Position numbers and translations under genes: made by a program
Source of the DNA: a phage
Strand: one strand, 5' to 3'
DNA length: 64,000 bases
Sequence record: PZ445428.1
The notes under the pieces: generated by a model
The model's input: only the letters and a program-made list of their open reading frames with translations
Databases searched by the model: none
Told to the model about the DNA's origin: nothing
Part shown: in pieces, positions 32,270-53,308 of the stretch
Numbering within the stretch: the first letter of the stretch is position 1
Layout of the letters: every line of letters begins with the position of its first letter

Positions 32270-32299
32270 ATTATACTAGATTTCGAGAGAATTTAGCAA
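32270..32299 (-). promoter_or_regulatory. Early promoter cassette (copy B of a tandem pair)
   Basis: Minus strand TTGCTA-18 nt-TATAAT then ATATACATAAATTCGAGGAG. Confidence 0.45.
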
Positions 32300-32370
32300 G
32301 TACAATTTTTATTTTTCTGCTTCGGACTTTCTTATCAATCCGAAACTTTCTCTCTCAAATTTATGTATAT

Positions 32371-32399
32371 ATTATACAATAATTATGAACTGTTGCCAA
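32371..32399 (-). promoter_or_regulatory. Early promoter cassette (copy A of a tandem pair)
   Basis: Minus strand TATAAT then ATATACATAAATTTGAGAGAG; -35 region weak (TTGGCA) and inside the 3' end of the helicase gene. Confidence 0.35.
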
Positions 32400-33735
32400 A
32401 TGCAATTTTAGCTAACTGTACTGCTTTCTCCGGAGTCATAGTAATAGTTTTCCATGCATTATTGCGATACACGGCCATACGTCCGGAAGCCTGTCTTAAA
32501 CCAGTGCCACCTTTCATAATTAGGTCTACTACTATCGGATCTAACTTCCCATCAACTATACGTTGTACACGACCTGCTAACTGTTCTATTAACGATTCGT
32601 TATTAATGAGACTTCCCATTATTAAACAAGACAGCTCGTTAAGAGAAATACCTTCGGAGAAGATACTTTGTGCAGCAGCAAGACAACATGGACCACCTTC
32701 TGCTACTTCCTTCTGGATTCGCAGACGATCATCGAGTGGAGTTGCACCAATAATCTCGTAGGTTGTAACACCTCGCTGAGACAGTGCTTCTAGTATCGTT
32801 TGTATTAGTTCTGTCCTGTCACTCACAAACAGAACCTTATGTCCCATGTTCACATACAGATGCGCCAGATTAATAATAGTCTGACGATATTCAGGGTTAG
32901 AATACACATCATTAGCACGTAAAGCCCACGGAACGTTCTGGTTTCCAGACAATTCAACCGGTACGGAGTACCTGTGGATTGTAGGAGCGACAGTATTATT
33001 AACCGGAGGGCTAAAGATCTTATATCCAAAGAAATCTTTGAACATAACCTGCAAACCATCCTTACGTTTTAACGTACCGGATAGCCCAATCTTGTAGCGG
33101 GCACAGGAAATTTCCAAGAAATTAGTAAATGTAGTTGCAACACAATGGTGAACTTCATCCACAATAACTGTTCCAAACACTTTGGACAGCTGATTAGCGT
33201 GTTTATTTACTGTTTGTATATTACTAACCACAATAGGTGGGTCAATATTATACTTTCCTGAACCAATAACTCCAGGTTCAAACCCAAACCATTTACGAAC
33301 TTCGGCCATCCACATTTCACGGATGGAAGTATTCGTACAGATTACCAGAGTTTTCTGTCCAAACTTATACGCAAGTGCTAATGCTAGGATAGTTTTACCA
33401 AATCCTGGCTTACCATTGATAATGCAGGTATCATCACACTCTTCATAAATAGGTAACTGATCTTCTTCACGCAGTTTAAAAGATGGTTCTGGAATATAAA
33501 CCGGAGCCAATGTGCGTTTATCAACCAGTTCGTACTTCACTCCCTTAGCATCTAGTAAATCCAGACGTGTAATGGGAATCCACTTAATCTCTTTAGCAAC
33601 AACACCGCTATTCTTATACATAATAGGGTATTTACTTGTCATTGTCTCGACATGGTAAGTGGTTTGCTTACTACAATAATCCCAAAGTTCATCATCGGGC
33701 TTGAAATAGGCTTTATTAGATATAACAACCTTCAT
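32383..33735 (-). CDS. SF2 DExH-box helicase
   Basis: Walker A GKPGFGKT, DEVHH box, downstream helicase C-terminal motifs; located between polymerase and SbcCD genes. Confidence 0.75.
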   Translation of the reverse strand: MKVVISNKAYFKPDDELWDYCSKQTTYHVETMTSKYPIMYKNSGVVAKEIKWIPITRLDLLDAKGVKYELVDKRTLAPVYIPEPSFKLREEDQLPIYEECDDTCIINGKPGFGKTILALALAYKFGQKTLVICTNTSIREMWMAEVRKWFGFEPGVIGSGKYNIDPPIVVSNIQTVNKHANQLSKVFGTVIVDEVHHCVATTFTNFLEISCARYKIGLSGTLKRKDGLQVMFKDFFGYKIFSPPVNNTVAPTIHRYSVPVELSGNQNVPWALRANDVYSNPEYRQTIINLAHLYVNMGHKVLFVSDRTELIQTILEALSQRGVTTYEIIGATPLDDRLRIQKEVAEGGPCCLAAAQSIFSEGISLNELSCLIMGSLINNESLIEQLAGRVQRIVDGKLDPIVVDLIMKGGTGLRQASGRMAVYRNNAWKTITMTPEKAVQLAKIAFGNSS

Positions 33736-34229
33736 AATTTTATTCTAAGTCTAGGAATTTCAGGCTCCTCTTGATGGACTTGATAAATAACAGGGCTATT
33801 ATTTACCAGAATATAGCTTATATAAGCTGGTACACTAGAAAGCACGAATGGATACGGAACCTTCGCTACGTAACATTGATACTTTCCATTATAAATTCTT
33901 GCAGAATGCAGAACTTTCGCAGTCACAACATCATAGAACGTAGTTTTCTTCCAGTTAATAAGATTTCCATCAGAATCTATAAACTGGGTACGTTTCGATC
34001 CCACTAACTGGGACAGCATTGATATTCTACCACGAATAGGATAGAGTTTGTAAGGTAATTCCTTTCGTTCCTCGTATAGAACAAGCCTACGTTGAGAAAA
34101 TGTGCCAGGCAACTTCCTGTTATCCAGCACATATTTGTTATATCTTGTAGTTATTACGGAATAATCACCTTCTTGCTCAATTCTTTCAAAAGCCCGCAGT
34201 GCGTATACGGGCAGTTTGAAATTAAGCAC
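33732..34229 (-). CDS. Hypothetical protein
   Basis: 165-aa ORF coupled between polymerase and helicase genes; GTG start per track. Confidence 0.3.
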   Translation of the reverse strand: MLNFKLPVYALRAFERIEQEGDYSVITTRYNKYVLDNRKLPGTFSQRRLVLYEERKELPYKLYPIRGRISMLSQLVGSKRTQFIDSDGNLINWKKTTFYDVVTAKVLHSARIYNGKYQCYVAKVPYPFVLSSVPAYISYILVNNSPVIYQVHQEEPEIPRLRIKL

Positions 34230-36802: not shown

Positions 36803-36848
36803 TTGGTAAGTAAGTATAACTTCAGTGTTTCTTCTCTAACTTACCAAT
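36803..36848 (-). promoter_or_regulatory. 9-bp inverted repeat in the 5' leader of the DNA polymerase gene
   Basis: Plus-strand arms TTGGTAAGT (36803-36811) and ACTTACCAA (36840-36848) between the candidate -10 and the RBS. Confidence 0.4.
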
Positions 36849-36850
36849 AT

Positions 36851-36880
36851 ATTATACCAAATCTTTAAGCGATTCAGCAA
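36851..36880 (-). promoter_or_regulatory. Candidate promoter for DNA polymerase gene
   Basis: Minus strand TTGCTG-18 nt-TATAAT; lies in the 3' end of the primase gene. Confidence 0.35.
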
Positions 36881-39293: not shown

Positions 39294-40061
39294 TTATTCA
39301 GCAGCCGCAGCTTTTGCATCCAGTTTAGCACGCTTAGCAGCACCATCATAGTCCTTAGCAACCAGACCACGACGAGACAGCATAGATTTAACACCGCGCT
39401 CAGACTTACCAGTTTTCTCAGCGATATCAGCAACAGTCATGTTAGCCAGATCCAGACCTTCTAACAGATCTTCGCGAGTTTTAGCGCTTGAAGTTTCCTG
39501 TACCGGCATTGCAGCGATACGACCTTCACGAAGCAGGCTCAGAGCTTTACCACGGATCTGCTTGATATTGCGACCGAAGTGAGCAGCGATAGCTTCAATA
39601 GTTGCACCAGCAACAACCTGATTAACGAAATCAGTTTCTTCGTCAGGAGTGAAGGAACGAACGGCAGCAGCTTTTTCAGTTGGCTTAACAGCAGCAGTCA
39701 TTTCCAGACTCAGAATCTTACCCTGTACCTGCTTAGCACCGAACTGACCACCAGCTACAGCAGCAGCGATTTCAGCGTAGGTATACTGACCAGCATGAGA
39801 GTTCAGGAAATCAACCAGTTCAGCTTCCTGCTCAGGAGTCCACGGGGATTTCTGTACTTCGTTAGCTTTCTGTACTTCGAAGCCTTCTTTACGCAGCTTA
39901 GAACCAACAGAGCGGGCGGTTACGTCCTTGCCAGTTTCAGCAGCCAGTTCTACAGCGATAGCAGCAACTTGTTCTTGAGAGATTACAGCTACACCCAGAG
40001 CAACGGCTTTAGCTTTCAGAGACTCGGTTACACCTTCTACGTTCCAGTTCAGTTTAGACAT
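39294..40061 (-). CDS. DNA-binding protein with four internal HTH-like repeats
   Basis: 255 aa; four repeats of about 50 aa each ending in an HTH-like segment (e.g. TVADIAEKTGKSERGVKSMLSRRGL); strongly biased codon usage. Confidence 0.5.
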   Translation of the reverse strand: MSKLNWNVEGVTESLKAKAVALGVAVISQEQVAAIAVELAAETGKDVTARSVGSKLRKEGFEVQKANEVQKSPWTPEQEAELVDFLNSHAGQYTYAEIAAAVAGGQFGAKQVQGKILSLEMTAAVKPTEKAAAVRSFTPDEETDFVNQVVAGATIEAIAAHFGRNIKQIRGKALSLLREGRIAAMPVQETSSAKTREDLLEGLDLANMTVADIAEKTGKSERGVKSMLSRRGLVAKDYDGAAKRAKLDAKAAAAE

Positions 40062-40063
40062 TA

Positions 40064-40834
40064 TTATTTTTTCTCCAATAGTTCTTTAATCGACAGGATT
40101 TCTATCCCATTCGTTTCGGCTTTCTTATAAGATGAGGAAGAACGCTTTGATTCATCCTCACAGATGAGGTAGTTTACGTCTTTGGTAACGGACTTCTTAA
40201 CCGTATATCCTAGACTTTCTAAGTAGTTTGTTGCATCCGTTCTATTTGCAAAATCTTGCAAAGAACCGGTAATACATACCACGATTCCGTTCGGTTGAGC
40301 AACTAAATCATCGATAAAGATGATATCAGCTTTTGTGCCCCGAATACCAGAACTAAATTTCCATGGTAGTTCGATAACATCCTTGCCTTGTGGGGAATTT
40401 AGCCAGGCTTTATAATTTTCTCCAGCTTTGCCGTCAGCCTTAACATCATTAAAACTAATGCAACCCTGGGATAGCTTTTTAGCAGCAACCTCTCCAATCA
40501 GAGGGATTCCTAAAGAACCGAGAACTGAACCAAAGTCAATGTCTCCGCGAACCTTAGTATTTAACTCGCTAATTAACTTAGCGGCAACCTTACTTCCCAC
40601 AGCTCCGACCAAATCTTCTTCGGTCAGGTAAAACAGTTCTGAGATCTTAGTCAGTTCCAGCTTTTCAATTGTTTTCGGGCCAAAGCCCTTTAACTTCATC
40701 TTTGTGCAGAAGTTCTCAATTAACTTACTTGACTGAGCTGGACAGTTGGACTTATTCCGACAGAATAATTGTCCGTTGACAAGATCTAGCTTAGAACCAC
40801 AAGAGGGACATTGTGTTGGAATTTCGATTTTCAT
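40064..40834 (-). CDS. ligB: NAD-dependent DNA ligase, C-terminal part (zinc finger/HhH/BRCT-like)
   Basis: Begins CPSCGSKLDLVNGQLFCRNKSNCPAQ (LigA-type Cys4 zinc finger) then HhH-like GFGPKTIEKL. ATG at 40834 after AAGGAAG. Confidence 0.7.
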   Translation of the reverse strand: MKIEIPTQCPSCGSKLDLVNGQLFCRNKSNCPAQSSKLIENFCTKMKLKGFGPKTIEKLELTKISELFYLTEEDLVGAVGSKVAAKLISELNTKVRGDIDFGSVLGSLGIPLIGEVAAKKLSQGCISFNDVKADGKAGENYKAWLNSPQGKDVIELPWKFSSGIRGTKADIIFIDDLVAQPNGIVVCITGSLQDFANRTDATNYLESLGYTVKKSVTKDVNYLICEDESKRSSSSYKKAETNGIEILSIKELLEKK

Positions 40835-40866
40835 CAAATTTCTTCCTTATCAATTTATATAACTAT

Positions 40867-40895
40867 TATAGCAAGTATTTAAGCATTTAGCAACT
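40867..40895 (-). promoter_or_regulatory. Early promoter cassette inside the ligA-ligB spacer
   Basis: Minus strand TTGCTA-17 nt-TATAAT then AGTTATATAAATTGATAAGGAAG and ATG 40834. Confidence 0.5.
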
Positions 40896-41040
40896 ACAAT
40901 TTTAACTAACTTTGCTTACCCTCGCCATAACTTTCTATCCCTCAACTGAATGATAATAGTATATACCTAAGCGGCGAAAATGTCAATAACCACTTTATAA
41001 TTCCGACATGGGAAACGGGTAGCAAAGGGTTATGAATTAC

Positions 41041-42012: not shown

Positions 42013-42205
42013 CGTCGGCGATTTCCATCTTGAGTTCTTTATTATACTGCGCAACCATACCAGCTAAATCAGCAGATTCTTTCAGAAACGCATCTCTGTA
42101 CGCTTTTTGATTTACTGTGCCGATACTATCTTGATATTTAATGCGAGCCATTGAAAGCAAATTAAGTTTTGCTTGAATTTTGGGAAGTGTTACTGTCATT
42201 GCCAT
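42005..42205 (-). CDS. Hypothetical small protein
   Basis: 66 aa from ATG 42205, which follows the conserved GAGAGGA cassette RBS; stop overlaps ligA start. Confidence 0.35.
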   Translation of the reverse strand: MAMTVTLPKIQAKLNLLSMARIKYQDSIGTVNQKAYRDAFLKESADLAGMVAQYNKELKMEIADDE

Positions 42206-42234
42206 AATTGATCCTCTCATCAATTTATATAAAT

Positions 42235-42263
42235 ATTATATATTAAAATTGAGCTGAAAGCAA
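42235..42263 (-). promoter_or_regulatory. Early promoter cassette
   Basis: Minus strand TTGCTT-17 nt-TATAAT then ATTTATATAAATTGATGAGAGGA and ATG 42205. Confidence 0.5.
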
Positions 42264-42269
42264 GTACAT

Positions 42270-42308
42270 TTATAAAGAAAAAGCCAAGAACTATTCAGTC
42301 TTGGCTTT
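42270..42308 (-). terminator. Rho-independent terminator
   Basis: Minus strand AAAGCCAAGA...TCTTGGCTTT hairpin then TTTTTCTTT; overlaps stop codon of the 42291 gene. Confidence 0.55.
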
Positions 42309-42946: not shown

Positions 42947-42983
42947 AACTGTATTTCCTTGTGTGGTGGATTTATCTTGAGAA

Positions 42984-43394: not shown

Positions 43395-43452
43395 ATTTTT
43401 GAATTTCCTTAATTAAGAATTAAACAGAATAGTTCTTTCAAACTATGAGAAT

Positions 43453-43481
43453 ATTATATCAAGAATTACAGGATTAAGCAA
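43453..43481 (-). promoter_or_regulatory. Early promoter
   Basis: Minus strand TTGCTT-17 nt-TATAAT; -35 overlaps a short palindrome ACTGAAA..TTTCAGT. Confidence 0.5.
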
Positions 43482-43731
43482 CTGAAATTTTTCAGTAACT
43501 GCTACACATCAAGCTCAACGATCTCCCAATCATCGGCCAGTGCTTCTTCTAGGGTCAGCTCACACACTTCGTCACTAGGCATTAGTGACGTATCGGAGGG
43601 CATCCACACGTACTGGCGTACGGTGTTGCTATCTACGAAGAATTTCAGGATTACTGTGTAATCCTTGTTGTTTTCCCAACTAGTCCGCTGGAGATATTTT
43701 TACGTCTCTAGCTTTTAACAGATCAGTTAAT

Positions 43732-44436: not shown

Positions 44437-44467
44437 TTAAATACTCCTCTCTCAAATTTATGAATCT

Positions 44468-44496
44468 ATTATACAGAAAATTTTTGCAAGATGCAA
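44468..44496 (-). promoter_or_regulatory. Early promoter cassette
   Basis: Minus strand TTGCAT-17 nt-TATAAT then AGATTCATAAATTTGAGAGAGGAG and ATG 44436. Confidence 0.5.
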
Positions 44497-44504
44497 ATAA
44501 ATTT

Positions 44505-44738
44505 TTACGATTCCTTGAGCAAAGAAGCCAGCTCAGCATAAACTTTATCTAACTCAAATCCAACGCGAAGGGACACACGAGTCTTCCGTTGTTTCAGAAG
44601 CCATATAGATACGTTAGGGATACCAGCGAGACGAGGTGGTACAACCCTACATAACTTTTCCGCAGTGTCATATCCGGAACGTTTACTCTCTTTTACGGGG
44701 AACTTCCTTGTTTCCCATTTTTTATTCTTCGCTGTCAT
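44505..44738 (-). CDS. Hypothetical small protein
   Basis: Start moved to internal ATG 44738 (MTAKNKK) after GGGAG; track ORF begins at 44789. Confidence 0.25.
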   Translation of the reverse strand: MTAKNKKWETRKFPVKESKRSGYDTAEKLCRVVPPRLAGIPNVSIWLLKQRKTRVSLRVGFELDKVYAELASLLKES

Positions 44739-47577
44739 TTCTAGCTCCCAGTTCTGCCAAAGCCTCTTCATGCATCTGACGTTCTTCATCAGTCATGAAC
44801 TTAACTGGAATCGGCATACACTCGATCTTACAGTAAGTTCTGTACCAGTCCACAATCTTTTCTGTATCCAAATCCTTTCCGATACCCATCATTCCCAAGT
44901 ACATACGAGCATACTTTGGGTTTGCACTCTGACCTGTTTTAAGGAAGAAATCTTTCTTCTTACCTTTCAGAGCTTCGATAAATGGTTTGATTGTGACATT
45001 TGAACACTTCTTAATATCTTCCCAGAACATCTCGTGCATCTTATGGAAGAATGCAGCCCGATCGTTTGGTTTATCCTTGATATACTGTTCAACATGTTCA
45101 ACTGTTACATCTTTAATAGAATCAAGATGATAGTAACGAACTAGCAGAAGTTTTGCTTCATAAGCATCAGCATGACGTGGTGCACAATAATCAGGAGTTG
45201 AGTGCAGGATAGCTTTAATTCGCTCTTCTGTGTACTCTTTGTTTGCACCTTCGATAGTCCCCCAGCTTTCACTGAAGATATCAATAGTCGCACCCTGATC
45301 AAGCAGATAATAGCGTAGAGTACTAGTATAATTCCTAGACTCCAGCTCACGACGACGTGCATAAAGTTGCTGTGCTAACTCAATCCAACCTTCGTCAATA
45401 TTATACTGCTCGGAACCCGCAGAAAATCCACTTGTAGACTTATCAATAAAGTAATAGATATTCTGAGCACCACGGTCGCGCCTGATTGCTTGAAAACGCA
45501 TGTTTGGCGCTTGGTTACTGGTTCGAGTAATAACGAATACGTTATCGAAATAGTTAAAGTCAACCCCACTCGTTACAGAGGGACTACATAATAAACAATC
45601 AATCTGCTGATCAATTAGCTCATTAGTTGTGTAATCCAGAATACGACGAATATCCACATCTGATGTGGAATTTGAGTGAATTTCTTTAACTAACGCACCA
45701 GTATTACGACGTAACGCCATACCTTTTTCGTTCAGTTCATCCGGACCACAGTCAGATACTAGGATAGATTTCTCACCCATCTCTAGAGATGTTTGTAAGG
45801 CAACCCAAATGCTGGATTCATCAGGGAACTCATAAGCATGAGCTTTTGCCAGCATTTTACGGTGATGATTATAGAACGCTACCGGTTTATCAAAGTCGAT
45901 CAGAGAGCCATAGGCTTCAATCGTTTCAGCACTAATATCACCATCAGACAGAATAACTGTTTTAGCTGTCATGAGAATATCACGAAGAACCTGAATACAT
46001 TCACGACGGTTCTTAACAACTGGAGCAAACAACAGGTCATTCATTACCGCGTCACATTCATCGATAAAGATTGTATCAATCTGACCAACAAAACTCTTGA
46101 ATTTATGGATTGAGTGAATCGTAGTTGACATACGATCAATCGCACCACGCTTGAAGTTCAGCATATCTACAGACTTATCATACTGACCAGCACTAAATTT
46201 CTTTGCGTTTGAAGATACCAGAGCACGAGTGTTTGTTACCGCGATGAAATTCCCAGGAAGAACGCCAGCATCCAGCCACTTCGTTACCGCCGTAGTTTTA
46301 CCTGTACCAAGACTTGCCTTAACAAATGTTAGGTGATCTTTTGGAGGTACAATGTTAATCTTCAGATATGGGACTTCCGCTGGAGAATCCGTATTTAACT
46401 GTTTTAGAGGAACACCTTTCAAGTTTTGTGGAATATCTCTACGACTATTGTTAACAAACGCTTTTAACGCCTGTTTACGACCGTTATTGAAGTAATCCTG
46501 AATATTACGACTATTATCTTTAGTTGCAATGTATTCAGACAAGGCAGGTTTAATCTCACGTTCTAACCACGCAAAATCAACACCATCCTCTAACGCTCGG
46601 TGATATAGTTTTGGAATAATACGCAGGTACACTCCATCCTCAGCTTCTTCTAATTCGCTGATGGTTTCCTCTACTTTTTCAGAAGCAGCCTTCTTACCTT
46701 TGATTTGATCGAGTAAAGAGTAGAACTCTTCTTTGAACTCACCCCTAGTTGTTTCATAGTCAACTAGGTTGTTTGGCAGATTTACTTTCGAACCCTTAAC
46801 ATACACAAGGCGTGGCTTATTCTCCGCTTTAAACGGATCAACTATACCATCGCTAAATAAAGGGTCGGCAAAATAGTGAAGCTGTACAGAAGAATAATAA
46901 GCTAAGTCAGCAATATCAAAACCATACTTTTGCTTACTACTATCGTTGATAGACGTAAATAAGAACTTTAACTGTCCCTGCGTCACCTTAACATTAGATT
47001 CCAGCATTAAGTGCATTCGGATACCTGATTTTAATCCAGCCGAAGACGATGCATGAGCAATAAACCCTGCATCAAGAGGAAACATATCCTCACTAATACT
47101 ATGTAACATCTTAATGATATGACGTGCCATGCCAACAAGATTAAACTTGTCGTAACCACCAGTATCCTGAATACCATCCACGTCCATTGCAATAATGTGA
47201 CTAGGATTAGAAACGTTAAAGTTTCCACGAGTACGACGGACATTATCCTTTGGAGCCAAACATTTACCACGAATAGCCACAATATGAGGATCTTGGGTTA
47301 GCCTACGCATAATAGGCAGCATTTCAGCAAGGCTTTGCGGGTCAAGCTCTTCAAGTACATCAAATTTGAAGGGCATGGAAGCTGGTTTACCTTCCGGATG
47401 CTCTTTCGAGAATCGCTTAGCAAAGGTGTAATCTTCCACTTTAATTTCTTTCCAGATGCCTGTTGCTTTATCTCTGGAAAATCCTGCATGACCTTGTAGG
47501 ATTGAGAACACAACAATACTCCTATGCTGGTTATTCGAATACTTTTCTTTAGGACTATTCAAAAAAGAATAGAACAA
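44722..47577 (-). CDS. Replication initiator-like protein (N-terminal primase-polymerase-like region plus P-loop NTPase/helicase)
   Basis: 951 aa; Walker A LGTGKTTAV and Walker B IFIDECDAV in C-terminal half; N-terminal IAMDVDGI acidic motif; start codon uncertain (TTG, no clear SD). Confidence 0.55.
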   Translation of the reverse strand: MFYSFLNSPKEKYSNNQHRSIVVFSILQGHAGFSRDKATGIWKEIKVEDYTFAKRFSKEHPEGKPASMPFKFDVLEELDPQSLAEMLPIMRRLTQDPHIVAIRGKCLAPKDNVRRTRGNFNVSNPSHIIAMDVDGIQDTGGYDKFNLVGMARHIIKMLHSISEDMFPLDAGFIAHASSSAGLKSGIRMHLMLESNVKVTQGQLKFLFTSINDSSKQKYGFDIADLAYYSSVQLHYFADPLFSDGIVDPFKAENKPRLVYVKGSKVNLPNNLVDYETTRGEFKEEFYSLLDQIKGKKAASEKVEETISELEEAEDGVYLRIIPKLYHRALEDGVDFAWLEREIKPALSEYIATKDNSRNIQDYFNNGRKQALKAFVNNSRRDIPQNLKGVPLKQLNTDSPAEVPYLKINIVPPKDHLTFVKASLGTGKTTAVTKWLDAGVLPGNFIAVTNTRALVSSNAKKFSAGQYDKSVDMLNFKRGAIDRMSTTIHSIHKFKSFVGQIDTIFIDECDAVMNDLLFAPVVKNRRECIQVLRDILMTAKTVILSDGDISAETIEAYGSLIDFDKPVAFYNHHRKMLAKAHAYEFPDESSIWVALQTSLEMGEKSILVSDCGPDELNEKGMALRRNTGALVKEIHSNSTSDVDIRRILDYTTNELIDQQIDCLLCSPSVTSGVDFNYFDNVFVITRTSNQAPNMRFQAIRRDRGAQNIYYFIDKSTSGFSAGSEQYNIDEGWIELAQQLYARRRELESRNYTSTLRYYLLDQGATIDIFSESWGTIEGANKEYTEERIKAILHSTPDYCAPRHADAYEAKLLLVRYYHLDSIKDVTVEHVEQYIKDKPNDRAAFFHKMHEMFWEDIKKCSNVTIKPFIEALKGKKKDFFLKTGQSANPKYARMYLGMMGIGKDLDTEKIVDWYRTYCKIECMPIPVKFMTDEERQMHEEALAELGARNDSEE

Positions 47578-48010
47578 CTATTACTAACGTCAACACAAAT
47601 ATTAATCATCATCAAGCAGTATGGATAAGTTACCATACCTCAGTGCTGTGCTCTCTATACTCATATCCAGAATAGAAATTAGGTCTATCGGCCGCTAAGC
47701 CATTTCTATTTGTCCTCACTATCCTATTGGTAGGTGACTACTGGACGTGTTACCATTCGCAGCTCTTTTCGTTCGCACCCCCATAAAAGCCTCTCCCTAT
47801 CTAACGAAGCTAATATGCACGGTTTGGATTTACCTTTCCGAATTCAGGGTACACAGATCACTTAATTGACAACCAACTAATATCGTATAAACATTAGTAA
47901 TAGTTAAAACAACCTTTAATGGGGCAGCCGAACTGTTCCGTATTGCGGATTGTAAACAAGAAAAATTAGTAAAATCAATTTTTACTAATGTCTCTCAATT
48001 CAATATAAAT

Positions 48011-48039
48011 ATTATATCAACTTTTGGAGCATCCTGCAA
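48011..48039 (-). promoter_or_regulatory. Early promoter cassette at the distal end of the 550-bp ORF-free region
   Basis: Minus strand TTGCAG-17 nt-TATAAT then ATTTATATTGAATTGAGAGA. Confidence 0.45.
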
Positions 48040-48130
48040 GTAAAATTTTCCCGACGGTGCTATCAGTGGCCTTGAGTACGGAGAAAACCGAGCCAAAGTG
48101 ACTCGGTAATCAGGATTGTGCTAAGGAAAA

Positions 48131-48538
48131 TCAATCATCATTTAGACCTGGAACATAGATTCCAATACGGTTTAATTGATGTTTGGCTTCTTCGAGAATA
48201 TCTGGAGTGTACTCCCAAATATCATCTTCCACAAATAACAAATAAGGGGACTCACCTGTTTCGGGGTCACGTGTAATGGCGTAACCGCGTGGGTGGAACA
48301 GGGAGAAGTTTAGGGCAACAATAAGACCCATACGAGATAGCTCATTCCAGTGCATCTCAAAATCTACAGGAACATCATTTTGATCTCTACTGGTAACAAA
48401 GATTCCTAGACAAGGATCTGTCGGGTCAGTAAAGGGGAAAGTTACACTAACCTTTTCAACCCCCAACCAACGTGCAAGGAGCCCTTCAGCCCGCTCCACT
48501 AAACTAGGATCAATAAGACGCCAAGATACTTGTTCCAT
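48131..48538 (-). CDS. Hypothetical protein (paralogue of 48549-48977)
   Basis: 135 aa, strong AAAGGAGG RBS; shares C-terminal motifs with neighbour. Confidence 0.4.
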   Translation of the reverse strand: MEQVSWRLIDPSLVERAEGLLARWLGVEKVSVTFPFTDPTDPCLGIFVTSRDQNDVPVDFEMHWNELSRMGLIVALNFSLFHPRGYAITRDPETGESPYLLFVEDDIWEYTPDILEEAKHQLNRIGIYVPGLNDD

Positions 48539-48548
48539 TCTGCCTCCT

Positions 48549-48977
48549 TTAAGCAGTTAAACCAGGGATCTGATAGCCGAAATGACGCAGCTTCTGGATA
48601 CCCTCATTTATTTCTTCGGGCGAATAATGCCAGCCCTCACGTTCATTTACCTGGAAAGCCGGAGCCTCCCCATTACGATAGTTTACTATCAAACGATGTT
48701 TAATAGGCATGAACAGTTTGTAGTTCAATGCAAAAACCAATCCCATGTAGTCCAGTTCTTTCCAGTCTACAATCTCTTCTACCCCATCTTCCAACATTAC
48801 ACTGATACCAATGCAGCTAGCTTCATCAGAGTCTGAAGTAAACGCGAAAGCAATCTCATTATTCTCACACCAAATCTTGAGAGTATTAATGGCTTCCTCA
48901 AACAGATTATCCGGCAGAGAACGCCAGAAGTTGATAAGAAGTGGATTGATATTGGTTTCAAATAGGTTATTAAACAT
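48549..48977 (-). CDS. Hypothetical protein (paralogue of 48131-48538)
   Basis: 142 aa; shares MGLxxALNxxLFxP and VPGL/IPGL motifs with neighbour. Confidence 0.4.
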   Translation of the reverse strand: MFNNLFETNINPLLINFWRSLPDNLFEEAINTLKIWCENNEIAFAFTSDSDEASCIGISVMLEDGVEEIVDWKELDYMGLVFALNYKLFMPIKHRLIVNYRNGEAPAFQVNEREGWHYSPEEINEGIQKLRHFGYQIPGLTA

Positions 48978-48979
48978 AG

Positions 48980-49519
48980 CTATACCTTTAAGTTTTGAAG
49001 GGCTTTACACATTGCAAGATCAGGACTAAACTCCAGCATATAGCTGATAGCATTCAGATCCTGCATATTTATTCCAGTTCTACCATTGACAATAACTGTT
49101 GGATACTGGTACATCATAGCTCCAGCATCATCTAGGACACACCAGTGCTTGAGTTTGTACTTTTCCACAAACCGAAGAACAGAATTGCCTCTAGATAATC
49201 CACCACCAGTAAAATCAGTAGTACCAAGAAAACGATCAACCAGACCTAACGCGGTCATGATCTCAACATTCTCCACCTCGTTACGTACTGTAAACCATGA
49301 TGAAACCCCAACAATCATTATACCGGATGGTTTTAAGAAGTTCTGGAAAGCCTGTAGTAAAGGTTTGAAAACCCAGTCTCCACCAAAGAAGATCTTCTCT
49401 TCATCTGGAGCATGGTGGTGAGAGATGCTCGAATTGAGCACCCCATCAATATCCAGAAAAATAATTGGAGTATTACTTAGATCCACCGGATTTGTCCCAT
49501 TGCAGAGTTTTAGCTTCAT
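48980..49519 (-). CDS. HAD-superfamily phosphatase-like protein
   Basis: 179 aa; IIFLDIDGVLN (HAD motif I DxDG) and later VLDD. Confidence 0.5.
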   Translation of the reverse strand: MKLKLCNGTNPVDLSNTPIIFLDIDGVLNSSISHHHAPDEEKIFFGGDWVFKPLLQAFQNFLKPSGIMIVGVSSWFTVRNEVENVEIMTALGLVDRFLGTTDFTGGGLSRGNSVLRFVEKYKLKHWCVLDDAGAMMYQYPTVIVNGRTGINMQDLNAISYMLEFSPDLAMCKALQNLKV

Positions 49520-49798
49520 CGGAGAAAGGAATATGGTAGTCTACCTTACCCTTACCAAACATAGCCGCCAAAAATACAGTATAGATAGTAATCATACCAA
49601 TCAGGTTTACAGTCCACACCAATACTTTCCAGATACCCTTAAAAATCTTCTTCACCATATTCTTCCTCCTTAATCAGGAATTCTTTCCATTCTGCTGTAT
49701 CCTCATAGATAACGCAGAAATCATCACTCTTGCACGAGAAATCATCAGTAGCATATTCAAAACGGTAGCACCAACTACCATCTGGCCATACTAAAAGA

Positions 49799-50575
49799 TC
49801 ACACATGCTTTTGCGGTGCATAAATAGTTCCTTCCATAAAAGCCCCTACTTGGCCAATAAAGTGTTTGTTACCAAAAACTTCGGCAGCCCCAGCACGCCA
49901 TACAGTAACACCACGTTTCTCATACAAGGACTGTTCTAAGTAGTTGATAGTTGGGTTAACAACCATCATCTTAGTACCCCGTGCCACCGCAGGAAATAGT
50001 TCCCAGTTGAAGTTGATAACTTGGTTACTGCACCCAACCACGATAACCATATCATTAGCCGTAAGACTATCGAAAGTAGCGTTCATCAAAGCGTATTCAG
50101 GGGCTACTTCACCGAAGAATACAACGTTAGGCTTAGCCCAATAAAACTCATCAGGATCTATGGCAGTATAACCCACATCTAGGATATACTCTTTTCGATC
50201 TGGCAATTCCTTAATACGAACTTCTGGTAAATAACCATGAACGTGTAGAACTTCACTTTTTGGCACACCAGCCCTTTCCAGTAGATCATCCACGTTAGTA
50301 GTGATGTTCAGTACAGTCTCTGGATATCGTTGGAACCACTCCCCAATGCGGAGATGCGCAATGTTAGGTTCAACAGTCTGCAATTCCTGACGACGCTTGT
50401 TGTAGAACTCGTGGGTTTTCCAGTAGAACTGTCCACGGAAAGCATGAATATCACATACTTCTTCCAGATCGTATTCATCCCACATTGCCTTGCCACTAGC
50501 AGTATCTGTACGGAATGCACGGATACCACTATCAACACTTAAACCTGCACCACTAACAATAATTAGTCTACGCAT
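49799..50575 (-). CDS. Sir2-like (sirtuin-fold) NAD-binding protein, no zinc-ribbon cysteines
   Basis: 258 aa; GAGLSVDSGIRAFR (sirtuin GAGxSxxSGIPxFR-type), HVHG, VVFFGE, VVVGCS; the CxxC...CxxC zinc motif is absent. Confidence 0.65.
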   Translation of the reverse strand: MRRLIIVSGAGLSVDSGIRAFRTDTASGKAMWDEYDLEEVCDIHAFRGQFYWKTHEFYNKRRQELQTVEPNIAHLRIGEWFQRYPETVLNITTNVDDLLERAGVPKSEVLHVHGYLPEVRIKELPDRKEYILDVGYTAIDPDEFYWAKPNVVFFGEVAPEYALMNATFDSLTANDMVIVVGCSNQVINFNWELFPAVARGTKMMVVNPTINYLEQSLYEKRGVTVWRAGAAEVFGNKHFIGQVGAFMEGTIYAPQKHV

Positions 50576-50813
50576 TTTTCACCTGCTCTCGGAAATTTTG
50601 ACCAATACTATCTAATAGCTCAGCTAATTCTTTATTACCTTTTTCTACTAAGGTATTAGCAATAACTTCCAGCATAGTAGCACAAGATTCAACACCATCT
50701 TTGTAACCAGTTTCCCAGTGTTTCATTAAAACACCCTGAAACTCTTCATTGAGCTTGTTTAGGTCAATGAGGCTAACATTTTCACTTGGTAGCTTCTGAC
50801 TCGAGAATGCCAT
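50568..50813 (-). CDS. Hypothetical small protein
   Basis: Start set to ATG 50813 after GGAGGA; track ORF begins at 50945 but its N-terminal 44 aa look non-coding. Confidence 0.35.
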   Translation of the reverse strand: MAFSSQKLPSENVSLIDLNKLNEEFQGVLMKHWETGYKDGVESCATMLEVIANTLVEKGNKELAELLDSIGQNFREQVKNA

Positions 50814-50985
50814 ACAGTTTGTCCTCCAGTTCCATAATACGATTTTCATAGGAAGCACGCAGCTTCTCGATGGATAAAGCACGAACCGTAACCTCATCTG
50901 AGTTAATCGCCAGTTGAGCGAGGTCTTCCGTTTCCATGCGGCCATTGTAAATTAAGCGATATTTAAGATGTTTTACGTTTTTCAT
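50782..50985 (-). CDS. Hypothetical small protein
   Basis: 67-aa ORF with AAGGAAG RBS; overlaps the next gene by about 32 nt. Confidence 0.35.
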   Translation of the reverse strand: MKNVKHLKYRLIYNGRMETEDLAQLAINSDEVTVRALSIEKLRASYENRIMELEDKLYGILESEATK

Positions 50986-50994
50986 TCTTCTTCC

Positions 50995-51276
50995 TTAGTT
51001 CTGTACTGTAAATGCGTTTTTATCGGCATGAGCATTATAAGGATCATTCATGCGATAGATTTTCACAGCTTTAGTAGACCCTTTTGATTCTTCATAATCA
51101 ATCCAGAGCCACTTGTCTTTGCCTACATAATGTACCCGAAATTTCTTAACTTTCTTATCGTTCCACGTTGCTACAACTCTACGATAATCAAAGCCACCTA
51201 ACCAATCAAGAGCCTTACGTTCTTCACTAGGCTCTCCCAAATGTGAAACGTCCACTTTAGGAAGCAATTCGCTCAT
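50995..51276 (-). CDS. Hypothetical protein
   Basis: 93-aa ORF directly downstream of a conserved promoter/RBS cassette. Confidence 0.4.
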   Translation of the reverse strand: MSELLPKVDVSHLGEPSEERKALDWLGGFDYRRVVATWNDKKVKKFRVHYVGKDKWLWIDYEESKGSTKAVKIYRMNDPYNAHADKNAFTVQN

Positions 51277-51304
51277 AGCTTTCTCCTCTCAAATTTATAA
51301 ATCT

Positions 51305-51333
51305 ATTATACACAAATTTTTAGCTGAAAGCAA
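51305..51333 (-). promoter_or_regulatory. Early promoter cassette
   Basis: Minus strand TTGCTT-17 nt-TATAAT then AGATTTATAAATTTGAGAGGAG and ATG. Confidence 0.55.
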
Positions 51334-51367
51334 ATAAAATAAAAGCCAGGTCGACTAGCAACCTGGC
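51334..51367 (-). terminator. Rho-independent terminator after nrdD
   Basis: Minus strand GCCAGGT...ACCTGGC hairpin followed by TTTTATTTTATTT. Confidence 0.6.
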
Positions 51368-51375
51368 TGATTCAC

Positions 51376-53250
51376 TTATTTAGCGCGAACGTCTCTATGT
51401 TTCACTCGACCCATAACCTCATGTTGTTTACCAGGGTTAAAAGGACGTGCTCCTGGGTTCCCAAGATAACCACAAACTCGACGAGTTACCTCTAAAGTTT
51501 CAGGATCATGGTTTCCACAGATAGGACATTTGAATCCATCCTCAGAAGCGATAGTCTCACCCAAGAATCCACACTCACCACAGGAATCTACGGGGGTATT
51601 AATACCGAAGTAATGAACCTTACTTGCAGCATAATTAATAACCCATTCCAATGCATCAGGGAATTTCTTCATATCAGGTAATTCCACATAGGAAATGCAC
51701 CCACCAGAAGCAATTGGGGTAAAGTTAGACTCATAATCAAACTTCACGTTTGGAGCAACCTTACGTTCCACATCAAGGTGATGTGAGTTAGTATAGTATC
51801 CTTTACCAAGAATATCTTCATGCTCTGGGAAATATTCACGGTCTAGACGACAGAAGCGATCACATAGGGATTCAGAAGGCGTTGCATACAAACTGTACCC
51901 TAACTGAGTTTCTTCCTTCTTCTGATCTGCACGATCACGCATATATTGTAAAACACGCTGTACAAACTTAATGCAGGTGTCAGACATTGTATCTACATCC
52001 TTACCAAACATAAACTGTAACATTTCATGGCAGCCAATGTACCCTAGTGATACAGAAGCACGCTTGTAGAAATGATCAAACACATATTCATCGGGCCCCA
52101 GACGTAATCCAAAGGCTCCTGACATATAGAGGATGGGCGCAGCTTTAGCTTGAATGTATTTTAAGCGATCAACCCTCCACTCCAATGCTTTAAGTGCAGT
52201 ATCAACACGCAGCTCAAGCAGATCGAAAAACAGATCAATATCTCCATCGGCTTCGATAGCGATTCGAGGAAGGTTTACAGAAACGACACCTAAGTTATTA
52301 CGACCTGATGTTTCTCCATCTTCCGCAGCAGCTAAGAATGAGCGGCAGCCCATAGAAACTTTGTAGTCTCCAGTAACTTCAACTACCTTATCATAGCTGA
52401 TATAGTCAGGATACATACGTTCGGCAGTACACTTCATAGCTAACTTCTTGATATCGTAGTTTACATCACCAGGTTTCATATTAACGCCATCACGAAGTAC
52501 AAATACCAGTTTAGGGAAGATTGCAGTACGTTTATTGATACCCAGACCATCCATACGTACTTCTAGGATTGCTTTCTGTACAAGACGAGCTTCCCAAGAA
52601 GTTCCTAAACCAAAGCCAAAGGTGATAAAAGGACTCTGACCATTAGAGTTGAACATCGTATTGATCTCATACTCTAGACCCTGACAGGCGTCGTAAACTT
52701 CTTTCTCAGTCATTTCCGTAGCCATTACAGATGCTTTGGCTTCGTCCTTAGTCCAACGCTTAGCGAACGCATGGTTCTTATCATAAGATTTACGAACGTA
52801 AGGGGCTAATACTTCATCAAGACGGTCAACAGAAGTACCGCCATATTGATGGGAGCTAACCTGAGTAATAATCTGAGCTGTAATAGCAGCCGCAGTAGTG
52901 ATAGAATTTGGCGTACTGATTTCAGCATTACCAACCTTCATACCATTCTTCAACATATCTTCCAAAGCAACGAGGCAACAGTTAGTCATACCTAAAGCTG
53001 CATAGTCAGCATCGTGGAAGTGAATATCACCAATCATATGAGCATTTCGAATCTGAATCGGCATTTCTTCTAGAATCAGATACTTACTCAACTCACCTGC
53101 TAGCATATCCCTTTGAGTAGGGAAGCGTTCTGAAGGTTTATTGGCGTTATTAAACAGCAGCTCTTCATCTGCTGAACCTTCGATAATTTCCTTGCAGTTT
53201 GTAATTAAAGACTGCATTCTTTTAATCTTCATCTGATCATTGTGATTCAT
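51376..53250 (-). CDS. nrdD: Anaerobic ribonucleoside-triphosphate reductase (class III)
   Basis: 624 aa; C-terminal CPICGNHD zinc site and RVCGYLG glycyl-radical motif; GAGAAGGAG RBS. Confidence 0.85.
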   Translation of the reverse strand: MNHNDQMKIKRMQSLITNCKEIIEGSADEELLFNNANKPSERFPTQRDMLAGELSKYLILEEMPIQIRNAHMIGDIHFHDADYAALGMTNCCLVALEDMLKNGMKVGNAEISTPNSITTAAAITAQIITQVSSHQYGGTSVDRLDEVLAPYVRKSYDKNHAFAKRWTKDEAKASVMATEMTEKEVYDACQGLEYEINTMFNSNGQSPFITFGFGLGTSWEARLVQKAILEVRMDGLGINKRTAIFPKLVFVLRDGVNMKPGDVNYDIKKLAMKCTAERMYPDYISYDKVVEVTGDYKVSMGCRSFLAAAEDGETSGRNNLGVVSVNLPRIAIEADGDIDLFFDLLELRVDTALKALEWRVDRLKYIQAKAAPILYMSGAFGLRLGPDEYVFDHFYKRASVSLGYIGCHEMLQFMFGKDVDTMSDTCIKFVQRVLQYMRDRADQKKEETQLGYSLYATPSESLCDRFCRLDREYFPEHEDILGKGYYTNSHHLDVERKVAPNVKFDYESNFTPIASGGCISYVELPDMKKFPDALEWVINYAASKVHYFGINTPVDSCGECGFLGETIASEDGFKCPICGNHDPETLEVTRRVCGYLGNPGARPFNPGKQHEVMGRVKHRDVRAK

Positions 53251-53279
53251 TATATTCTCCTTCTCTAACTAAGACTACT

Positions 53280-53308
53280 ATTATAGCTCATTTGAAGGCG
53301 TATGTCAA
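53280..53308 (-). promoter_or_regulatory. Sigma70-type promoter for nrdD (divergent from phoH promoters)
   Basis: Minus strand TTGACA-17 nt-TATAAT then GAGAAGGAG RBS. Confidence 0.55.

Follow-up and report, generated by a model that had tools for sequence, protein, structure and literature searches.

T5-type early promoter cassettes repeated across the early gene block of Escherichia phage TrudiGerster

Early promoters in the window

Many early genes in the 64,000-nucleotide stretch of phage DNA analysed here (the window; sequence record PZ445428.1) appear to be preceded by one and the same promoter and leader, raising the question of whether the likeness is real and what the conserved piece between the -10 hexamer and the ribosome-binding site (RBS) does. 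The window comes from Escherichia phage TrudiGerster (Bas27), a T5-like member of the Demerecviridae, and the repeated cassettes are the very strong early promoters of T5 and its relatives. These are annotated as T5P22-T5P38 and 'repeat a/b/c' in the T5 record (GenBank AY587007), whereas the TrudiGerster record carries no promoter annotation.

An earlier note had listed at least eight minus-strand sites together with a variant at nrdD. All nine are present when the minus strand is read, each with TTGnnn, a spacer of 17-18 nt and TATAAT, but the list is an undercount, as the early block holds 17 promoters of the same type. Eight of the nine coordinate pairs are exact, while 40867-40895 is a 2-nt slip for 40865-40893. 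The proposed 17-nt spacer holds at all nine sites but 32270, where it is 18 nt, and the proposed TTGCWW -35 is found at six sites (TTGCTA, TTGCTT or TTGCAT) but not at 32371 (TTGGCA), 48011 (TTGCAG) or 53280 (TTGACA). The features are listed below; start sites (+1) in the window are predicted from the numbering of T5 N25, ITS denotes the initial transcribed sequence and SD the Shine-Dalgarno sequence.

32244..32299, minus: early promoter, T5P38 orthologue; -35 TTGCTA 32299-32294, 18-nt spacer, -10 TATAAT 32275-32270, predicted +1 at 32263, ITS ATAAATTCGAGGAG; in alignment, the ATT at 32240 falls on the EscoHU1 homologue's ATG
32345..32399, minus: early promoter lying 101 nt upstream of the 32270 promoter, with which it forms a tandem; -35 TTGGCA 32399-32394, -10 32376-32371, predicted +1 about 32364, ITS ATAAATTTGAGAGAG, which is T5 'repeat c copy 7'; followed by a conserved hairpin (32346-32319) without a U-run
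36825..36880, minus: early promoter (36880-36851) upstream of the DNA polymerase gene, missing from the earlier list; -35 TTGCTG, 18-nt spacer, -10 36856-36851, ITS GTAAGTTAGAGAAGAAAC; conserved as far as Eos and Klebsiella and Pantoea phages; a T5 early promoter 'Ppol' has been reported (PMC7472727)
40839..40893, minus: early promoter of ligase subunit B, T5P37 orthologue; -35 TTGCTA 40893-40888, -10 40870-40865, predicted +1 about 40858, SD AAGGAAG, ATG at 40834
40932..40986, minus: tandem upstream promoter of TTGACA/TATACT type (40986-40958), T5P36 orthologue, missing from the earlier list; -10 40963-40958
42209..42263, minus: early promoter, T5P35 orthologue; -10 42240-42235, predicted +1 about 42228, SD GAGAGGA, ATG at 42205
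42282..42306, minus: terminator hairpin, AGCCAAGA...TCTTGGCT and then TTTTCTTTAT; its T-tract merges with the A/T block of the 42235 promoter
43427..43481, minus: early promoter, T5P34 orthologue; -10 43458-43453, ITS ATAGTTTGAAAGAACTAT, capable of a 5′ hairpin; next start codon at 43394, about 52 nt downstream
44442..44496, minus: early promoter, orthologue of T5P33 (T5 P_N25); -10 44473-44468, predicted +1 44461, ATG 44436
47985..48039, minus: early promoter, T5P32 orthologue; -10 48016-48011, predicted +1 about 48004, ITS ATTGAATTGAGAGAC; followed by a non-coding leader of ~490 nt and an obp-like gene
51279..51333, minus: early promoter, T5P31 orthologue; -10 51310-51305, predicted +1 about 51298, SD GAGAGGAG, ATG at 51276
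51344..51368, minus: nrdD terminator hairpin, then TTTATTTTAT; its T-tract is also the A/T block 5′ of the -35 of the 51305 promoter, and the T5 record has a terminator and promoter annotated at the matching place
53254..53308, minus: nrdD promoter with consensus TTGACA-17-TATAAT, ITS CTTAGTTAGAGAAGGAG, ATG at 53250
53509..53563, plus: divergent early promoter (53509-53537), T5P30 orthologue, upstream of a phoH-like gene
54612..54715, plus: terminator hairpin (54612-54639) and early promoter (54661-54689), T5P29 orthologue, upstream of nrdA; -35 54661-54666, -10 TAGAAT 54684-54689
57069..57162, plus: terminator hairpin (57069-57090) and early promoter (57108-57136), T5P28 orthologue; -10 57131-57136; a homing-endonuclease gene is next downstream in TrudiGerster
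60577..60666, plus: hairpin (60577-60596) and early promoter (60612-60640); -10 60635-60640, ITS TATAAATTGGAGAC, ATG at 60665
61685..61739, plus: early promoter (61685-61713), T5P26 orthologue; -10 61708-61713
62036..62090, plus: early promoter (62036-62064), T5P25 orthologue; -10 62059-62064, ITS CATAAATTGATCAAC

Orthology with T5 is established for most of the set: for 13 of the 17, the T5 record has a 'putative early promoter' within T5P25-T5P38 in the orthologous position, annotations that overlap 'repeat a/b/c', and the 32371 site makes a fourteenth match through 'repeat c copy 7'. Both phages share the A/T block, TTGCTT-like -35, 17-bp spacing, TATAAT, A/T discriminator and ATAAATTTGAGAG-type transcribed region; they differ in spacer sequences and in some flanking genes. 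At 44468 the sequence is the same as in T5P33/N25 for 29 bases, starting with the -10 hexamer and ending at +17 (TATAATAGATTCATAAATTTGAGAGAGGA), and agreement extends to about +19, the difference being confined to the spacer (TTGCATCTTGCAAAAATTTTCTG here, TTGCTTTCAGGAAAATTTTTCTG in T5). The full pattern is also found, with several copies in each genome, in many viral contigs of 104-128 kb, T5 included. The T5 early promoters (P_N25 and its siblings) are the Bujard-laboratory promoters, and N25, whose counterpart lies in the window, is the promoter sold in pQE expression vectors. The observation is confirmed but, as the cassettes belong to this long-known family, ordinary.

Comparison of the motif with chance

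With a genome of about 40% GC, any AT-rich set of sigma-70 promoters might look alike, and a generic sigma-70 consensus scan indeed gave no enrichment, with 47 matches found against 49.5 expected from shuffles. The signal is therefore the extended motif rather than AT-rich composition. Allowing at most one mismatch, TATAATANNNNNATAAATT (TATAAT-A-N5-ATAAATT) has six matches, all on the minus strand and each at a claimed site, against 0.06 ± 0.24 in shuffles. When a weight matrix is built only from the 26 nt 3′ of the -10 and applied leave-one-out, the core sites come 2nd to 15th among 127,950 positions, and pairwise identity over these 26 nt is 0.451 compared with 0.315 ± 0.008 in letter-shuffled controls. 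The downstream motif is absent from 35 other TTG-N16-18-TAnnnT matches, nearly all of them intragenic. An unbiased k-mer count in early intergenic regions recovered TATAATAT, TACTTGCT, AAAATTGTA and ATAAATTTGAGAG. Generic promoter similarity, a reading to which we give almost no credence, is refuted by the pattern count, the leave-one-out ranks and the pairwise identity, the nine sites being far beyond chance. All 17 promoters are co-oriented with their genes, and 14 of the 22 early intergenic gaps contain a cassette.

The conserved block downstream of the -10 hexamer

In T5 N25, TATAATAGATTCAT spans -12 to +2 (PMC7472727), and the start is therefore the A located 7 nt after the -10. The conserved piece is a 6-nt A/T-rich discriminator (-6 to -1) followed by the first 10-13 transcribed bases, and with the start so placed all of it is covered by the RNA polymerase footprint of -50 to +20 (PMC12464699). 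The suggestion that it is longer than initiation needs is not supported. Purifying selection is established: across four close relatives, orthologue identity is 98.6% for ITS +1 to +10, 98.8% for the -10, 95.6% for the -35 and 85.4% for the spacer, and across three distant relatives it is 83.5% for ITS +1 to +10, 76.5% for the -35 hexamer and 61.2% for the spacer, the latter values being somewhat inflated since alignments had to span -35 to +20. The ITS is thus conserved about as well as the -10 hexamer and far better than the spacer, a pattern that fits selection on polymerase kinetics and on the mRNA 5′ end alike.

A role mainly in the RNA, as an unstructured A/U-rich 5′ end with a strong SD favouring ribosome loading or mRNA stability, is possible but doubtful. 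A/U-rich leaders are known translation enhancers. The SD and close start codon described for the listed sites occur within ~35 nt of the -10 at only five (53280, 51305, 44468, 42235 and 40865), with 6-7 nt from the GGAG/AAGG core to the start, or 7-9 nt by script; across the 17 promoters the arrangement is found at 10, or 11 if the ATT at 32240 is counted. The purine run at 32371, 43453 and 48011 has no start nearby, and at 32270 GAGGAG is followed by ATT 9 nt later. The purine-rich ITS is nevertheless retained at 32371, 36851, 43453 and 48011, sites with 50-490 nt before the next start codon, and it is therefore more than an RBS. Also against selection as RNA, the discriminator is conserved although not transcribed, and the initiation regions (-25 to +20) of cassette-led genes are not predicted to fold any less strongly (-4.6 kcal/mol) than those of the remaining 63 genes (-4.4 kcal/mol; Mann-Whitney p = 0.86).

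The start site of N25 and the effect of its transcribed region are established for the T5 orthologue in the literature. When +3 to +20 are replaced, the yield of full-length RNA drops about 10-fold and more abortive product is made; escape is fastest with the native A/T-rich ITS (PMC12464699; PMC5961368). This control of escape by the downstream stretch is seen with polymerase alone (PMC12464699), which argues against the block being the site where a regulator from phage or host tells early from late promoters. We consider such a regulator unlikely; the candidate would be polymerase modified by an RNAP-binding protein of the T5 gp026 type, or else a DNA-binding protein (D5, for instance). In its favour, T5 uses sigma-70 for all three temporal classes with the switch unexplained, gpT5.026 makes polymerase bind the -5/+2 segment of N25 less tightly, and an ATATT-like discriminator is said to occur in all known early T5 promoters (PMC7472727). 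In the window, every one of the 17 sites has A directly after the -10, within an A/T-rich discriminator. The discriminators themselves differ, however (ATATAC, AGATTC, ATTTAT, ATTCTC, AGTAGT), the gpT5.026 effect in vitro is only moderate (PMC7472727), and no consistent dyad or direct-repeat operator was found among the cassettes, the best inverted arm averaging 4.5 nt (4.0 ± 0.23 in shuffled sequences) and differing in position from site to site.

The block also resembles sigma-70-dependent promoter-proximal pause elements, known from lambda PR' and lac and in genome-wide classes (Sun et al., 2021; PMC7876045). A consensus -10, 6-7-nt spacer and Y-R(+1)-Y start occur at 14 of 17 sites and a TAnnnT hexamer in the early transcribed region at 11 of 17, its positions +2, +3 and +7 being the most conserved of the ITS. 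The distance from the true -10 down to this -10-like hexamer is 14 bp, against 11 bp in the published distal-pause class (PMC7876045), and the hexamer that the window has at 11 bp, YATAAA, does not end in T. A literature search found no report of pausing at N25.

Cassettes and gene module boundaries

The earlier note placed hairpin terminators immediately upstream of several promoters. This is the case at 51305 (51368-51344) and 42235 (42306-42282), and more loosely at 48011 (48107-48087), where the hairpin is about 47 nt from the -35; terminator hairpins also precede the plus-strand promoters ending at 54689, 57136 and 60640, so that five of the six hairpins are directly upstream. The layout recalls the promoter-early stem-loop (PeSL) cassettes of T4-type phages (Arbiol et al., 2010, PMC2839356; Comeau et al., 2014, PMC4122927). 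These are repeated intergenic units, located where variable genes meet, that combine a stop codon within A/T-rich DNA and a stem-loop terminator with a strong early promoter of sigma-70-like type, an SD and a start codon. The two kinds of cassette are unrelated in sequence, an adjoining terminator-like hairpin is found in only 6 of 17 T5-type cassettes, always upstream, and many of the latter head core replication genes rather than ORFans.

With PeSL as precedent (PMC2839356), the cassettes could provide short stretches of homology through which recombination reassorts gene modules, a role that we regard as improbable, somewhat more so than a regulator. Homology with T5, KPP2018, EscoHU1 and STG2 ends at cassette edges (42214, 43497, 51288/51274, 57138/57155, 62013 and 60568), and the spacers and upstream blocks of paralogous cassettes resemble one another more than shuffles do (0.385 against 0.271). 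The tandem promoters 32371 and 32270 share a 19-nt exact repeat. Their array comprises three cassettes in Eos and a Klebsiella phage and two in TrudiGerster, EscoHU1 and a Pantoea phage (in T5 too, by orthologue alignments); the first TrudiGerster cassette resembles a fusion of the first and second in Eos and the Klebsiella phage. Yet none of the indels relative to four close relatives is bounded by two cassettes, a further difference from PeSL; each ends at a cassette on one side and a gene boundary on the other, and the 57138 break is the homing-endonuclease insertion. Breakpoints would fall in intergenic DNA in any case, and many of the early gaps hold a cassette; shared exact stretches reach just 19-30 nt, and function accounts for the strong ITS conservation among orthologues. 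A regulator or recombination role for the conserved piece is thus weakly supported and not required.

Proposed function of the cassettes

The interpretation in the earlier note is supported in part: these are sigma-70 promoters with a common leader, reused before early genes, and some form terminator-promoter-RBS modules. Very probably, the cassettes are strong sigma-70-dependent early promoters whose whole conserved unit is read by the host RNA polymerase holoenzyme alone. The unit would comprise an A/T-rich block 5′ of the -35, supplied in several cases by the U-tract of the terminator before it; a -35 resembling TTGCTT, a 17-bp spacer and consensus TATAAT; an A/T-rich discriminator of 6 nt whose first base is A; and a Y-A(+1)-T start leading into an ITS that is A/T-rich and later purine-rich (ATAAATTTGAGAG). 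At promoters that bind polymerase so tightly, escape would be the rate-limiting step, and the discriminator and ITS may set the speed of promoter clearance. This escape function comes from N25 and its variants, and would extend by analogy to the subtypes ATTCTCATAGTTTGAA and GTAAGTTAGAG and to every site. Where a gene lies directly downstream, the purine run would double as the Shine-Dalgarno sequence of a ~24-nt leader, and upstream hairpins may shield each unit against read-through.

An early promoter class repeated through the early region

Positions 40000-52000 of the window are 100% identical to Escherichia phage TrudiGerster (Bas27, MZ501108.1; Demerecviridae, Epseptimavirus), a T5-like phage, and window coordinates equal those of the MZ501108.1 record minus 480. 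Late structural genes occupy the plus strand as far as ~25.7 kb. Next comes a minus-strand block of early replication genes, reaching 53.25 kb, and from 53.6 kb a divergent plus-strand block of early nucleotide-metabolism genes. Seventeen promoters of the T5 type (11 minus, 6 plus) were found in the early region, all pointing the same way as the downstream gene block, and of the 22 early intergenic gaps that measure 25 nt or more, 14 hold promoters of this set. A TTGCTT-like -35 and a TATAAT -10 are separated by 17 nt in 15 promoters and by 18 nt in two. The promoters are named here by the end coordinate of the -10.

Early promoters of the window and their counterparts in phage T5
32270, minus: T5P38
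32371, minus: 'repeat c copy 7'
36851 (pol), minus: aligns with unannotated T5 sequence
40865, minus: T5P37
40958, minus: T5P36
42235, minus: T5P35
43453, minus: T5P34
44468, minus: T5P33 (N25)
48011, minus: T5P32
51305, minus: T5P31
53280 (nrdD), minus: aligns with unannotated T5 sequence
53537, plus: T5P30
54689, plus: T5P29
57136, plus: T5P28
60640, plus: the only member of the 17 without a T5 counterpart
61713, plus: T5P26
62064, plus: T5P25

An earlier note had described a repeated minus-strand promoter-leader cassette at nine of these sites (32270, 32371, 40865, 42235, 43453, 44468, 48011, 51305 and 53280). The cassette is real and present at all nine, with one set of coordinates shifted by 2 nt (40865-40893 instead of 40867-40895). 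The proposed 17-nt spacer before TATAAT holds except at 32270 (18 nt), while the proposed TTGCWW -35 occurs as TTGCTA, TTGCTT or TTGCAT at six sites but is TTGGCA at 32371 and TTGCAG at 48011; the nrdD promoter has TTGACA. Downstream of TATAAT, read on the minus strand, these sites carry an A/T-rich stretch and then a purine run. TGnTATAAT, with TG at -15/-14, is found at only six of the 17 promoters (36851, 40865, 43453, 48011, 53537 and 57136), and an extended -10 was therefore rejected as a feature of the class.

The cassette corresponds to an already known class of T5 early promoters. The T5 record AY587007 carries annotations reading "putative early promoter T5P22 ... T5P38", its "repeat a/b/c" features coincide exactly with the -35 block and the -10-to-+15 block, and annotated promoters between T5P25 and T5P38 are positional orthologues of 13 of the 17 sites. 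Equivalence to a historically named T5 promoter is asserted for N25 only; a literature search on names such as H207 and N26 returned nothing relevant.

Recurrence beyond base composition

Generic sigma-70 scans gave no enrichment over shuffled sequence (47 versus 49.5; second scan, 37 versus 44.7), so an extended motif was needed as the test, and these scans were replaced by extended-pattern, leave-one-out and k-mer analyses. The motif search over intergenic regions that had been proposed then recovered the motif well above shuffles. With at most one mismatch, TATAATANNNNNATAAATT has six matches against 0.06 ± 0.24 expected, all six at the sites first described, and in a leave-one-out test with a 26-nt matrix the core sites ranked 2nd to 15th among 127,950 positions. 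Chance or AT-rich composition alone is excluded as the source of the similarity. A matrix built from only the 24 nt after the -10 finds previously unlisted promoters, each with its own -35 and -10. Within the oriented early intergenic regions, TATAATAT occurs in 10 regions, whereas 200 shuffles gave 5 at most, and the k-mers TACTTGCT(A), AAAATTGTA and ATAAATTTGAGAG were likewise recovered. Similarity between promoters is raised in three segments: pairwise identity is 0.451 in the 26 nt after the -10 (0.315 ± 0.008 in letter-shuffled controls), 0.385 in the spacer (0.271 in shuffles) and 0.49 in the 20 nt immediately 5′ of the -35 (0.32 in shuffles), where an A/T-rich block with recurrent AAAATT(G/T)TA-type k-mers directly precedes the -35.

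Promoter anatomy and the predicted start site

The 44468 site equals T5P33 across 29 bases, from the -10 hexamer to +17. T5P33 contains TATAATAGATTCAT, which corresponds to positions -12 to +2 of T5 N25 according to Klimuk et al. (PMC7472727), so that the start is the A 7 nt after the -10. Predicted starts at the other sites were placed by reference to this N25 orthologue, and a pyrimidine-purine-pyrimidine triplet with its purine 7 or 8 nt past the -10 is present at 14 of the 17. With this numbering, the AT-rich stretch of "about 15 nt" in the earlier description resolves into a 6-nt discriminator plus +1 to +8, and the purine run covers approximately +9 to +18. The discriminator and the 'downstream sequence region' (+1 to +20) are conserved both within the genome and across orthologues.

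This block had been thought longer than initiation needs and a possible binding site for a regulator. The RNA polymerase open complex protects -50 to +20 (PMC12464699), and the whole block falls inside that footprint; it does not exceed what initiation requires. A sequence-specific regulator would fit the T5 early-to-late switch and the gp026 data, but no operator-type dyad or direct-repeat symmetry was found at a fixed position across the cassettes: the best inverted arms measure 3-6 nt (mean 4.47 versus 4.02 ± 0.23 shuffled) and shift in position from site to site. A regulator is unnecessary to account for the conservation.

Conservation in Demerecviridae

The region under study has matches in 542 Demerecviridae records. 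Its syntenic counterpart was taken from seven other members of the family (T5, EscoHU1, STG2, KPP2018, a Klebsiella phage, Pantoea phage AAS21 and Eos), and orthologous promoters, in which the motif is conserved, were aligned on the -10 hexamer. The record of Salmonella phage GE_vB_N5 (MG969412.1), marked UNVERIFIED, was left out of the conservation figures because it has many single-base deletions relative to all other relatives, some inside promoters, which are probably sequencing errors.

Identity to the window by promoter segment, for four close relatives (57 pairs) and three distant relatives (17 pairs; values somewhat inflated, since alignments were required to span the promoter)
-10 hexamer: close 98.8%, distant 98.0%
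Initial transcribed sequence (ITS), +1 to +10: close 98.6%, distant 83.5%
-35 hexamer: close 95.6%, distant 76.5%
Discriminator: close 95.0%, distant 72.5%
Spacer: close 85.4%, distant 61.2%
Far upstream: close 84.4%, distant 41.9%
+21 to +30: close 89.5%, distant 45.3%

These values indicate purifying selection on the first transcribed bases, comparable with that on the core hexamers. The analysis itself shows the motif, its orthology and the selection on it. The conservation of the ITS extends to 36851, 43453 and 48011, whose next start codon is 50-490 nt away. Selection at the RNA level for an unstructured leader is an alternative explanation, but such conservation far from any start codon argues against it, as does the predicted folding of initiation regions, which is equal in cassette-led and other genes; an unusually unstructured initiation region in cassette-led genes was accordingly rejected.

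Many viral contigs of 104-128 kb, T5 included, contain the full pattern TTGC-N19-TATAATANNTNNATAAATTKR in several copies per genome. Klebsiella phages KpGranit and Kpn02 match a 12-kb query only at 47989-48027 (36-39 nt, 95-97% identity), a stretch made up of the 48011 promoter's spacer, -10 and early transcribed region; this promoter core is thus better conserved than the neighbouring genes.

Terminators and a probable host-polymerase escape unit

Hairpins followed by a T-run lie upstream of six promoters.

Terminator-like hairpins upstream of early promoters
51368-51344, minus: directly upstream of 51305
42306-42282, minus: directly upstream of 42235
54612-54639, plus: directly upstream of 54689
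57069-57090, plus: directly upstream of 57136
60577-60596, plus: directly upstream of 60640
48107-48087, minus: upstream of 48011, ~47 nt from the -35

Several of the sites first described had been placed immediately downstream of a terminator; this is so for 51305 and 42235, where the T-tract doubles as the A/T block 5′ of the -35, whereas the hairpin at 48011 is more distant.

pQE vectors carry N25 as their 'T5 promoter', and it is the standard model for abortive initiation and promoter escape. T5 promoters were reportedly selected and sequenced in the Bujard laboratory, in work by Gentz and Bujard in 1985, and Kammerer et al. are said to have found in 1986 that the transcribed region of N25 matters. 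N25 is escape-limited and escapes fastest with its native A/T-rich ITS; changing +3 to +20 to the "antiDSR" sequence lowers full-length RNA to about one tenth and yields more abortive products (PMC12464699; PMC5961368). The A/T discriminator is conserved in all known early T5 promoters, according to Klimuk et al., and for some T5 promoters the mapped start and early kinetics during infection are known (PMC7472727).

The best-supported reading of the cassettes is a host-polymerase escape unit. The earlier view of them as sigma-70 promoters with a conserved leader was right, and each would be a compact, high-output unit read by the host sigma-70 holoenzyme alone. The upstream hairpin, where present, would block read-through; the A/T block, -35, 17-bp spacer and consensus -10 would give very tight, fast polymerase binding; and the A/T discriminator with an A/T-then-purine ITS would let polymerase leave a promoter otherwise limited by escape. 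In front of an adjacent gene, the purine run would also serve as the Shine-Dalgarno (SD) sequence of a ~24-nt leader. The ITS effect and the start site are extended to all sites by analogy with the N25 literature.

Ribosome-binding sites and gene starts

The earlier description had GAGAGGAG followed by a start codon 5-7 nt later. This arrangement occurs at 53280, 51305, 44468, 42235 and 40865 but not at 32371, 43453 and 48011, where the purine run has no nearby start codon, nor at 32270, where GAGGAG is followed 9 nt on by ATT (32240). This ATT is in frame with bas27_0030 (31878-32240, minus), whose annotated ATG is at 32162 and whose frame is open for 26 codons further up to ATT 32240; the EscoHU1 homologue has its ATG at the aligned position (MKFFDYE... 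versus IKFFDYE...), and T5 carries the same ATT. It may be a start codon, or bas27_0030 may be N-terminally truncated.

The ribonucleotide reductase alpha gene (plus) has an annotated start at 54668, upstream of the promoter -10 (54684-54689), which is probably wrong; ATG 54728, 8 nt past AAAGGAAA, is the start position used in T5 and STG2. For bas27_0039 (minus), the annotated ATG 42220 falls within the SD-like GATGAGAGGA, and the in-frame ATG 42205, with proper SD spacing, is the likelier start.

Recombination between cassettes

The cassettes had also been proposed to provide homology for the swapping of gene modules. Homology with relatives does break at cassette edges, and the tandem array holds two or three cassettes depending on lineage, yet in the four close relatives no indel lies between two cassettes: a cassette is found at just one end of each break, a homing-endonuclease insertion accounts for one of the breaks, and exact repeats span only 19-30 nt. 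The only event involving two cassettes is the change in the number of tandem copies, and a recombination role is unnecessary to explain the repeats. The nearest parallel is provided by the PeSL cassettes of T4-type phages (PMC2839356; PMC4122927), with which the T5-type cassettes share a repeated early sigma-70 promoter, an A/T-rich upstream region, an SD and a start codon. A terminator-like hairpin, a possible counterpart of the PeSL stem-loop, accompanies six of the 17 cassettes (five directly upstream, plus 48011), and unlike PeSLs the T5-type cassettes do not bound indels or replacements in pairs in the four close relatives.

The tandem promoters number three in Eos and the Klebsiella phage and two in TrudiGerster (L009 5690-6040, L011 560-910 and L010 5540-5795 in the sequences of relatives). 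At the last tandem promoter of the Klebsiella, Eos and Pantoea phages the gene ATG lies 1-4 nt past the -10, leaving no leader, while the T5/Epseptimavirus lineage has a full ITS and SD leader at this position; the comparison suggests that the leader piece itself has been copied between cassettes. The homing-endonuclease gene bas27_0060 (57137-57680, plus) is inserted between the 57136 promoter and nrdB, and homology to the endonuclease-free EscoHU1, STG2 and KPP2018 ends 2 nt after the 57136 -10 and restarts at 57672. T5 has a different endonuclease at this spot.

Sigma-70 pausing and the early-to-late switch

Proximal sigma-70 pausing is associated with a consensus -10, a 6-7-nt spacer and a Y-R(+1)-Y start (PMC7876045), a combination present in 14 of the 17 cassettes. 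A TAnnnT hexamer occupies +2 to +7 in 11 of the 17, and conservation within the ITS peaks at its T, A and T. In the distal pause class a -10-like hexamer lies at 11 bp (PMC7876045), whereas TAnnnT in the T5-type cassettes is 14 bp downstream of the -10. A literature search for sigma-dependent pausing at N25 found no report.

It is conceivable, though improbable, that the discriminator-ITS core (A-W-W-T..Y-A(+1)-TAAATT-GAGAG) acts beyond escape optimisation as a class-specific control point of the T5 early-to-late switch. The consensus -10, 6-nt spacer, YRY start and downstream TAnnnT would then hold sigma-70 paused over the SD, and early promoters would be turned down late in infection by a gp026-type RNAP-binding protein, a kind that weakens contacts at -5/+2, acting through this segment. 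The near-identical cassettes could also serve incidentally as PeSL-like recombination joints.

Other elements

An Rfam search of the whole window gave no family match. A ~490-nt non-coding leader (47512-48004, minus) separates the 48011 promoter from the obp-like bas27_0046 (start 47511), and T5 has the same gap between T5P32 and obp. This leader folds better than 100 of 100 shuffles (z = -3.3) and could be a structured 5′ UTR, a ncRNA or origin-related DNA.

Between the tandem promoters 32371 and 32270, and preceding the latter, is a hairpin (32319-32346, minus; GTTTCGGA...TCCGAAGC, ~-14 kcal/mol), which is kept in distant relatives (L009 ~5860-5890; L011 ~690-730). It is not a typical terminator; an A-rich run instead of a U-run follows the stem.

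The nrdD/phoH divergent region contains a 12/12 consensus promoter, TTGACA-18-TATAAT (53367-53396, plus), whose GC-rich discriminator, CCCGCGCCC, sets it clearly apart from the early class; no obvious gene lies before the 53537 promoter. In the late region, a TTGATA-17-TATAAT promoter (14403-14460, plus) follows a terminator hairpin. Its leader, ATTAAGAGGAGAAATTAACTATG, is almost the 'RBSII' ribosome-binding site of pQE/pDS vectors, and the vector site may derive from the T5 tail gene at this position.

Significance

The discovery value is small, as the analysis arrives, from raw sequence, at a set of bacterial promoters that ranks among the most intensively studied. It gives a BASEL-collection phage, whose record carries none, a map of promoters and terminators, and indicates small annotation corrections. 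Across Demerecviridae the ITS is as conserved as the -10 hexamer, even without a nearby gene start, in agreement with its published function in escape. The cassettes are a natural place to test temporal-class switching with a single sigma factor in T5-like phages.
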